A DNA stretch of 9,540 nucleotides. It comes from a virus. Its lineage: Duplodnaviria > Heunggongvirae > Uroviricota > Caudoviricetes. Positions 6,380-7,046 of this stretch are shown here, piece by piece. The translations under genes were made by a program, and so were the position numbers. Location of the stretch: the IMG/VR virus record IMGVR_UViG_2671180651_000017. One strand, given 5' to 3'. Positions within the stretch are counted from its first letter, which is position 1, and every line of letters begins with the position of its first letter. The notes under the pieces were generated by a model. That model was not told the DNA's origin, searched no databases, and saw only the letters and a program-made list of their open reading frames with translations.

Positions 6380-6629
6380 AACCTGACGGGCAACGGCTAC
6401 GCGCTTCGCGTTCCGTCCAGGCGGTTACGTGGATGATTTGAGATTCTCCGGCACTCAGGGCCAGAAAACGCCAGATGTATTTATTCAGGTTGTGCGAGTC
6501 CCGCCCTTGCGGGTGTGTGGTATGATTTCTCATAGCTACCTCGATACTGTTGCTATCGTTGGTTGTTAGAAGCCCGTTGGTGTTGGTAGCACCTGCGGGC
6601 TTTGTCTTTTCATCGATTACCTCAATAAA

Positions 6630-6712
6630 GGTGTCAGCCACTATACTAGTAACAGGTGTCAGCCACGTCAATAGTGTTTTTCCATTTTCTTGTGTGTATA
6701 CTGTCAGCCACC
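6630..6712. promoter_or_regulatory. Operator/promoter region: three direct repeats (GGTGTCAGCCAC x2, CTGTCAGCCACC) each next to a TATACT -10-like hexamer, upstream of the RHH gene
   Basis: Repeats at 6630-6641, 6655-6666, 6701-6712; TATACT at 6642-6647 and 6697-6702; SD AAGGAA 7 nt before the ATG at 6733. Lies in the divergent region between the RHH gene (+) and the replication operon (-). Confidence 0.55.
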
Positions 6713-6732
6713 TAATAACAAGGAAATCAGAT

Positions 6733-6912
6733 ATGGCAACGAAAGCAGTTAATGGAAAATCCAAAAAACTTGAGGCACGAGTCCCCCATGCAATAGCTGA
6801 CGCCGTAGAAAATTTAAAGGAAGAAGGCGAAAGCACTGGGCAATTTATCGTTTCGGCACTTGAAGGCGAGATCAAACGCCGCCAGCGCCGCAAGGCCAAA
6901 GAGCAGGAATAG
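6733..6912 (+). CDS. Ribbon-helix-helix (CopG/Arc-like) DNA-binding protein, 59 aa; candidate satellite repressor
   Basis: ATG at 6733 with a strong SD. KKLEARVPHAIADAVENLKEEGESTGQFIVSALEGEI fits the RHH pattern (beta strand, helix, G-x-S/T turn, helix). Only plus-strand gene; own terminator at 7001-7028. Confidence 0.6.
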   Translation: MATKAVNGKSKKLEARVPHAIADAVENLKEEGESTGQFIVSALEGEIKRRQRRKAKEQE

Positions 6913-7000
6913 TCCACCAGCAAGCCAGCACACTGAGCACATTGCCCACCAGACAGCAAATCGCTATGATGTTCGGGCTTATGTTTAGTGTTTTCCCATT

Positions 7001-7028
7001 GGCGACCGCCACAGGTCGCCTTTGTTTT
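7001..7028 (+). terminator. Rho-independent terminator of the RHH gene: GGCGACC-GCCACA-GGTCGCC followed by TTTGTTTT
   Basis: Perfect 7-bp GC stem at 7001-7020 followed by a T-rich tract at 7021-7028. On the minus strand the hairpin is followed by A-rich sequence, so it works mainly in the plus direction. Confidence 0.65.
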
Positions 7029-7046
7029 ATGTGTCATATGTTCCCC

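Follow-up and report, generated by a model that had tools for sequence, protein, structure and literature searches.

A proposed ribbon-helix-helix operator switch akin to that of P22 immI, with Stl-like topology, in a satellite island of Escherichia coli

We analyzed a window of 9,540 nucleotides (IMG/VR record IMGVR_UViG_2671180651_000017; positions are those of this whole stretch unless another locus is named), which corresponds to an integrated satellite island of about 9.3 kb from E. coli. Between the leftward replication operon of the island and its alpA gene lie a gene for a ribbon-helix-helix (RHH) protein of 59 amino acids (aa) and three copies of a short repeat. We propose that the 59-aa protein represses the replication operon through two of these repeats, O1 and O2, regulates its own synthesis through the third, O3, and is seconded by an antisense RNA acting as an additional lock; we give this reading a probability of roughly 70%. 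The finding would be an RHH operator switch of the kind found in P22 immI, Stl-like in its topology, coupled to a SymR-like RNA and to the convergent alpA gene. It is grounded in features of the sequence and their conservation, in the predicted fold, in covariation and in natural cassette swaps.

The RHH protein and its putative operators

The gene of the 59-aa protein is located on the plus strand at positions 6733 to 6912, and is preceded by a Shine-Dalgarno (SD) sequence AAGGA at about 6720 to 6726; translation begun at 6734 instead runs into stop codons. RefSeq, which annotates the identical E. coli locus, gives it as the sole plus-strand gene of the island, with all the others on the minus strand. 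An earlier note on this DNA had read the lone plus-strand gene as encoding an RHH protein, and this is borne out by the annotation, by the NCBIfam family and by the predicted fold. The protein scored 61.9 bits over residues 9 to 50 against the YlcI/YnfO family NF041551, for which the cut-off is 30; PHROGs labels its family 'unknown function'. In the AlphaFold model (pLDDT 87) the N-terminus is extended and two helices come after it, in agreement with the β-strand, helix, helix order over about 45 residues that characterizes the RHH superfamily. Comparison of the homologues showed that R16 and the C-terminal EIKRRQR are invariant, that P18 is present in at least 90% of them, that G32, S34 and T35 are nearly invariant, and that residues 11 to 15 are highly variable. 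The inter-helix turn G-x-S/T/N (G32-E-S34-T35) and the R-x-P end of the strand (R16, P18), both expected of an RHH protein, are present, and hhalign aligned R16 and P18 with R13 and P15 of Arc in a weak match (probability 21%). By predicted fold, the 59-aa protein matches the RHH (MetJ/Arc/CopG) DNA-binding proteins. Its homologues are found across Enterobacterales; a set of 1.84 billion representatives contains just 91 clusters of them when clustered at 50% identity. The gene is monocistronic, with a terminator and then the convergent alpA gene on its 3′ side; a co-transcribed toxin gene immediately downstream, which an RHH antitoxin of a type II toxin-antitoxin system would be expected to have, was not found.

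The window contains exactly three copies of GTCAGCCAC; they are located at 6633, 6658 and 6703, share the plus strand and fall within 79 bp. These copies, noted earlier between the RHH gene and the leftward operon, are found nowhere else; the remaining matches with one mismatch are scattered, about 1.4 of them being expected by chance in the window. The unit common to the three repeats is TGTCAGCCAC. We found that the true sites are 11-bp pseudo-palindromes of the form GTG-N5-CAC, a property that the earlier note had missed, and no further match to the 11-mer was detected in the window with up to two mismatches. Operator O1 (GTGTCAGCCAC, 6631 to 6641) is situated just downstream of the leftward −10 element, over the predicted +1. 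Operator O2 (GTGTCAGCCAC, 6656 to 6666) lies within the spacer of the leftward promoter and abuts its −35 element, while operator O3 (CTGTCAGCCAC, 6701 to 6711) overlaps the last two nucleotides of the −10 element of the RHH gene's own promoter together with the predicted start site.

A promoter scan placed the leftward promoter, P_left, which serves the icd-like-to-primase operon, at 6643 to 6671 on the minus strand, with a −35 element TTGACG (6671 to 6666), a spacer of 17 bp and a −10 element TAGTAT (6648 to 6643). For comparison, 75 related loci were collected, one genome per species, and promoter statistics were calculated on 57 dereplicated loci. P_left is of the sigma-70 type: the −35 element TTGA[C/A]G was present in 55 to 57 of the 57 loci and the −10 element TAnnnT in 52 to 57, with a spacer of 17 to 18 bp. 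The promoter of the RHH gene, P_right, carries a conserved −10 element TATACT at 6697 to 6702 on the plus strand; the same hexamer is found in 44 of the 57 loci, and its positions 2, 3 and 6 are invariant. Concerning the two TATACT hexamers pointed out in the earlier note, this one is the −10 element of the RHH promoter, while the other, at 6642 to 6647, is not conserved as such and is the leftward −10 element seen from the opposite strand. The promoter, SD sequence and terminator that had been ascribed to the RHH gene were all recovered, the terminator as an intrinsic-terminator-like hairpin with a T tail on the plus strand (GGCGACCGCCACAGGTCGCC followed by TTTGTTTTAT, 7001 to 7030, the hairpin itself at 7001 to 7020), which would end the RHH transcript. 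Likewise, the divergent topology, compared earlier to cI/cro or Stl, is conserved, with O1 and O2 in the core of P_left and O3 on the RHH promoter; O2 is about 48 bp upstream of the start site of the RHH gene. Since the core of P_left holds O1 and O2, the leftward promoter would be occluded and the operon repressed. The position of the sites thus argues for repression of P_left and for autoregulation of the RHH gene.

The order of the primase and Icd-like genes (minus strand), the RHH gene (plus strand), and the alpA and integrase genes (minus strand) is kept in Enterobacterales. In most of the 75 related loci, three sites are found at about −101, −76 and −31 from the ATG, the 11-mer itself differing between loci. 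All three sites switch together from one locus to another, in step with the β-strand of the RHH protein: 24 pentapeptides at residues 11 to 15 each map to a single operator within one to four mismatches, the widest being QKIQA. The pairs include the strand KKLEA with the operator GTGTCAGCCAC, KRFDV with GTGTC[G/C]GACAC, QTIAA with GTGTTGAACAC, Q[A/S]LK[A/S] with GTGTGGCCCAC, QKMSA with CTGGCACCCAC, QQLNA with GTGAATCGCAC, QMTTV with GTGAAATACAC and LQVSV with GTGAACACCAC. Several operator classes are perfect palindromes. In most loci O3 differs from O2 by zero to two mismatches, and several specificity classes have O1 inverted, with the reverse-complement sequence of O2, as expected for the site of a symmetric dimer.

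The distance between operators was compared by Mantel tests with the divergence of each island protein. It was correlated with the divergence of the RHH β-strand (r = 0.34) and of the rest of the RHH protein (r = 0.31; p ≤ 0.0005 in both cases), but not with that of AlpA (r = −0.01, p = 0.55), of the integrase (r = 0.03, not significant), of the primase (r = −0.04, not significant) or of the equally adjacent Icd-like protein (r = −0.08, n = 18). This correlation of distance matrices led us to reject AlpA, the integrase, the primase and the Icd-like protein as binding or specificity partners of the repeats. Furthermore, the pseudo-palindromes, the flips of orientation and the covariation of strand and operator fit, although indirectly, the binding mode of the RHH superfamily, in which an obligate dimer places a two-stranded sheet in the major groove of palindromic, pseudo-palindromic or repeated sites. 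From the covariation, with which the natural swaps described below agree, we strongly infer that the repeats act as operators of the RHH protein, as the earlier note had supposed, and that an RHH dimer binds O1, O2 and O3.

Two E. coli loci, L080 and L082, provide natural exchanges of the segment. Compared with the window, their alpA side is 92 to 96% identical (93 to 96% from 6909 rightwards) and their icd side is 82 to 92% identical, while between about 6575 and 6909 (window numbering) both contain another RHH-type gene, along with repeated palindromes of another sequence. The RHH gene of L080 (1322 to 1501) is accompanied by TGTAATG-type palindromes; that of L082 (1850 to 2032), a YnfO-type variant from an O157:H7 island, is accompanied by two copies of GGTACGTACC. 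In a further locus, L081, both the RHH protein and the operators are unchanged. The breakpoints of the swaps fall at the terminator of the candidate RNA described below and at the RHH stop codon. Judged by these swaps, the promoter-operator-RHH segment (about 6576 to 6908) behaves as an exchangeable specificity ('immunity') cassette.

We also considered genomes that carry two to four islands each (X. innexi, X. mauleonii, Y. pekkanenii, Pectobacterium spp. and T. intestinalis; loci L002 to L065). In the nine genomes concerned, all 18 pairs of co-resident islands differ in RHH/operator class. The probability of this outcome was 0.018 when classes were shuffled within genera and 0.23 when they were drawn from the global pool; these differences suggest selection against cross-regulation, the global-pool test not being significant.

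A candidate antisense RNA and the convergent alpA gene

In the same interval, and beyond what had been noticed earlier, we found a candidate cis-antisense small RNA at 6533 to 6612, immediately to the left of O1 and on the same strand as the RHH gene (plus). It consists of two hairpins, A (6533 to 6568) and B (6569 to 6603), followed by a U tract, and hairpin A is antisense to the SD sequence and the AUG of the Icd-like gene, the first gene of the leftward operon. Folding of the plus strand gave −32.6 kcal/mol (z −3.6) versus −23 for the minus strand. RNAalifold predicted 22 base pairs over 53 loci, 16 of them with compensatory changes. On the plus strand 97.7% of the cells pair (168 G.U pairs included) versus 83.4% on the complement, and this asymmetry assigns the RNA to the plus strand. 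A putative extended −10 element, TGGTATGAT (6518 to 6526; TATGAT with an upstream TG), is located about 7 nucleotides upstream of the RNA, and reads TATGCT or TAGACT in relatives.

SymR, of the type I locus SymE/SymR, is a cis-antisense RNA that has its promoter within the target open reading frame (ORF) and covers the translation start of the target (PMC1891008). Like SymR, the candidate has two hairpins in about 75 to 80 nucleotides, a putative promoter inside the target ORF and a 5′ end lying opposite the AUG and the SD sequence of the target; the sequence blocks AGYCAU, UUGUGRUUAG and GUGUUG..GCAC are shared as well. Its target, however, is not SymE but an Icd-like protein heading a replication operon. 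Full-length matches to SymR (RF01809) were obtained at the equivalent place on the plus strand in all four relatives searched permissively, with 32 to 37 bits, below the gathering threshold of 61 bits, and no Rfam family reached its gathering score in the candidate region. We consider that the RNA may work like SymR, and we leave it outside the SymR family. A C4, isrK or P4 CI RNA would have been expected upstream of icd, and Rfam found none of them: the searches were negative at E ≤ 1 in the window, at E ≤ 5 in four loci and at the gathering score in 18 sources, and neither the window nor any of 21 related loci gave a match to C4 or isrK, permissive thresholds included.

The alpA gene (7047 to 7271, minus strand; Pfam Phage_AlpA, 3.4e-16) has the orientation of the replication operon and converges on the RHH gene. 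The convergence proposed in the earlier note stands, but the sharing of the hairpin at 7001 to 7020 by the two genes does not: its tail is T-rich on the plus strand and not on the alpA strand, so that it is a one-way terminator of the RHH gene rather than a shared bidirectional one. With no terminator of its own on that strand, alpA would probably be transcribed past the hairpin and on through the RHH gene.

According to our proposal, a symmetric RHH dimer would recognize GTG-N5-CAC by its N-terminal β-strand (about residues 11 to 17), with residues 11 to 15 setting the specificity. Occupancy of O1 and O2 would block RNA polymerase at P_left and keep silent the icd-like/DUF4222/primase operon and, with it, the replication module. 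Occupancy of O3 at the −10/+1 region of the RHH promoter would result in negative autoregulation. The SymR-like RNA, transcribed toward the operators, might constitute a second lock by pairing with the ribosome binding site (RBS) and the start codon of the Icd-like gene, thereby blocking its translation. A helper phage would activate alpA, and the antisense read-through across the RHH gene into the replication operon might then flip the switch. The translation block by the antisense RNA and the read-through from alpA are the two steps that we infer more weakly than the others.

Evaluation of the proposed switch and of alternative readings

Several observations weigh against the proposed switch. 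Binding, the sign of regulation and the RNA candidate were all deduced from the sequence; the window's own copy of this RNA, which is more divergent, gave no match to SymR. The RHH gene abuts the operators, and the covariation might be overstated if the two are inherited together; the Icd-like gene, which is as near to the operators, is uncorrelated with them, but just 18 loci were available for this comparison. The 59-aa protein had no match in Pfam, hence none to a helix-turn-helix family of Pfam, and no significant match in Foldseek or sequence searches of the PDB. The −35 region of P_right is weak, with no recognizable element. The spacing between O1 and O2 varies (22, 23, 25 or 35 bp), so that no fixed cooperative geometry is evident. 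Finally, a similar terminator is located 3′ of the RHH gene in just about half of the relatives, and the hairpin shared by the RHH and alpA genes was dropped as a conserved feature for this reason.

The alternative that survives best, which we regard as unlikely though far from negligible, is that the RHH protein acts with the antisense RNA in a local module, for control or addiction, that concerns the Icd-like gene only, or that it is an Arc/Cro-like shut-off acting after induction. In both versions it would not be a maintenance repressor whose loss induces the island, and AlpA alone would decide on induction. In EcCICFT073, AlpA is indeed necessary for induction and its overexpression is sufficient (PMC6092414). 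The RNA candidate resembles the type I antitoxin SymR, the first gene of the operon is annotated as an Icd-like division inhibitor and is possibly toxic, and negative autoregulation through O3 would suit many small accessory regulators. However, the Icd-like gene overlaps or abuts the same-strand genes downstream of it as far as the primase gene, with no promoter evidence in between, and repression of P_left should silence the whole operon. In addition, the module occupies the exact position of Stl/Rpr in Gram-positive bacteria's phage-inducible chromosomal islands (PICIs), and diversification of specificity with exchange of cassettes is typical of immunity repressors.

It is very improbable that the repeats are bound by AlpA, by the arm domain of the integrase or by the primase as an initiator (origin iterons), with the RHH gene merely adjacent. 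The alpA gene is about 340 bp away, direct repeats near promoters are typical for Cox/Vis-type proteins and iterons, and Xis/Vis-like proteins bind direct repeats. Against such a binder, the operator identity was uncorrelated with the divergence of AlpA, integrase and primase. The E. coli window and Xenorhabdus islands have the same strand and the same operator, yet their AlpA proteins are about 40% identical; conversely, L080 and L082 combine a near-identical alpA with unrelated repeats. Neither the surroundings of the att sites nor the region downstream of the primase gene contained an additional copy of the site, and the sites can be inverted, unlike arm sites or iterons of fixed polarity. 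As to a chance or promoter-associated sequence that has no dedicated binder, 9-mers can recur and one-mismatch matches are expected in the window, but three exact 10-mers lie within 79 bp, and chance is effectively refuted because a locus-specific repeat recurs at the equivalent three positions in most of the 75 loci. The observation of the earlier note and the core of its interpretation are upheld.

The island, EcCICFT073 and related systems

The locus of E. coli strain 2014C-3061, between clpS and cspD, is 100% identical to the island. An integrase, alpA, a P4-type primase, packaging gene(s), a size of about 10 kb and att repeats identify it as a Gram-negative PICI or P4-type satellite, and its gene layout agrees with that of EcCICFT073. 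The integrase gene is located at 8133 to 9356 (minus strand). The interval between it and alpA encodes a 257-aa protein (7363 to 8136, minus strand) with no match in Pfam, NCBIfam or PHROG; weak homologues were seen at the equivalent position of a few related loci (L017 and L072). In the same interval of other loci the Rfam int-alpA RNA motif (RF02996) scored above gathering (L019, 6519 to 6587; L021, 6893 to 6961; L025, 6461 to 6529; L050, 1847 to 1913; L066, 6469 to 6537), and this motif was not detected in the window.

The leftward operon starts with the gene of the Icd-like small protein (6330 to 6533, minus strand; RefSeq; NCBIfam NF033153, 1.4e-17), with an SD sequence GAGG about 6 nucleotides upstream; this is also the first leftward gene in the relatives examined. 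The family labels of this protein conflict, PHROGs (phrog_6196 and phrog_1743) giving 'transcriptional repressor' and NCBIfam a cell-division-inhibitor-like protein. A minus-strand ORF of 235 aa (6330 to 7037), in the same frame, spans the entire RHH gene in antisense and is best read as spurious, the true start of the Icd-like protein being the ATG at 6533 with its GAGG sequence and its RefSeq start. Several small minus-strand ORFs, one of them encoding a DUF4222 protein, separate the Icd-like gene from the downstream cargo of the operon, the P4-type primase/D5 helicase (3678 to 5426, minus strand; Pfam D5_N, DUF5906 and Pox_D5; TIGR01613). Genes for a small terminase subunit and a capsid-like protein are also carried by the minus strand. 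An imperfect direct repeat of 73 nucleotides (76 to 148 and 9373 to 9445; 74% identity; common core AAATTAACTACACCATT[A/G]ACTACACCGT) probably represents attL and attR bounding the island. The non-coding end past the capsid-like gene contains further direct repeats, at 223 to 310/760 to 847 (88 nucleotides, 95%), 728 to 755/846 to 873 (28 nucleotides, 96%) and within 413 to 513 (47 nucleotides, 72%), which could be packaging (cos/pac) or repetitive extragenic palindromic (REP)-like elements.

EcCICFT073, the prototype of the Gram-negative PICIs, is located in CFT073 at 1,377,930 to 1,388,654 and has the order int, alpA, an oppositely oriented YlcI/YnfO gene (C_RS30120), then the Icd-like, DUF4222 and primase genes. 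C_RS30120 (L079, 35473 to 35652, which is NC_004431, 1380473 to 1380652) encodes an RHH protein with the strand QALKA, and is accompanied by two copies of GTGTGGCCCAC plus a degenerate O3; its high tag number suggests that the first annotation may not have included it. Gram-negative PICIs have been described as transcribed unidirectionally, with an unclear global repressor, and the different induction strategies of Gram-positive and Gram-negative PICIs have been called 'a mystery' (PMC6092414). AlpA is an activator: overexpression of alpA alone induces replication of EcCICFT073, and an ORF3 reporter is alpA-dependent (PMC6092414). These results fit read-through or bypass. Later surveys of satellites name only AlpA, MerR and Stl as regulators, and in the openly searchable literature, subscription-only papers excluded, we found no paper in which an RHH regulator is connected with PICIs or with other satellites. 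The putative repressor of EcCIMP1 (PMC11773190), which we considered, is of the PerC/ANR type and unrelated to the 59-aa protein.

The RHH gene is divergent from the replication operon and lies between it and the int side, the position of the master repressor of PICIs. As for Stl/Rpr of the Gram-positive PICIs (Staphylococcus aureus pathogenicity islands, SaPIs), the promoters are divergent, and the protein would be expected to hold the island quiescent (PMC6092414). Homology to Stl/Rpr was not found, the protein having no helix-turn-helix match in Pfam and an RHH fold by prediction; unlike the larger helix-turn-helix protein Stl, which has a domain that binds a helper protein, the 59-aa protein is devoid of such a domain. 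Convergent transcription driven by AlpA is a plausible trigger as an alternative to derepression by a helper protein.

The immI region of P22 encodes the RHH repressors Mnt and Arc and the antisense RNA sar, which controls ant. The arrangement proposed here resembles it by a small, autoregulated RHH repressor gene divergent from the promoter that would be repressed, by operators overlapping the core promoter, and by a small antisense RNA over the RBS of a gene in the repressed operon. It differs by the lack of a detectable sequence-family relationship (the hhalign match to Arc given above), by one protein with three 11-bp sites instead of two proteins with one operator each, by a target that is a satellite replication operon headed by an Icd-like gene and not an antirepressor, and by the convergent alpA as partner. 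What it shares with immI of P1/P7 (c4-icd-ant) and with P4 CI is that the first gene is Icd-like and that the early or replication operon, in an element with a P4-type primase, is controlled at its head, here putatively, by an RNA. Unlike C4 and P4 CI, which are processed from the same strand, the RNA candidate is on the opposite strand, and a candidate protein repressor is present too. The NF041551 match above cut-off relates the protein to YlcI/YnfO of the DLP12 and Qin prophages of E. coli K-12; however, these and other prophage members adjoin lambdoid terS/cos, do not contain EIKRRQR and have no GTG-N5-CAC repeats upstream. The same is true of a 77-aa YnfO homologue of a lambdoid prophage in CFT073 (L079, 3100 to 3333). 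Heterodimer formation between such a helper homologue and the island RHH protein was considered and dropped for lack of evidence.

A wider claim, which we advance tentatively and at clearly less than even odds, is that the RHH protein may be the long-missing master repressor of Gram-negative PICIs, EcCICFT073 included. It would form a bistable switch with the helper-activated convergent alpA and the SymR-like RNA lock; its β-strand and operators would diversify as an immunity cassette, so that co-resident satellites avoid cross-regulation, and induction by helper phages would come about when the repressor is removed or outrun. If true, a repressor gene that is conserved and divergently transcribed, and whose operators sit on the replication promoter, would alter the 'unidirectional' picture of Gram-negative PICIs and restore a common PICI architecture, and the question could be addressed directly in EcCICFT073, an existing model system. 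The natural pairs of β-strand and operator, about two dozen, could be read as a ready-made recognition code, could be drawn on for orthogonal mini-repressors and, together with the cassette swaps, illustrate how the 'immunity' specificity of satellites evolves. The 59-aa RHH protein, previously overlooked in E. coli PICIs, would be the best candidate for the repressor that these islands were thought to lack.

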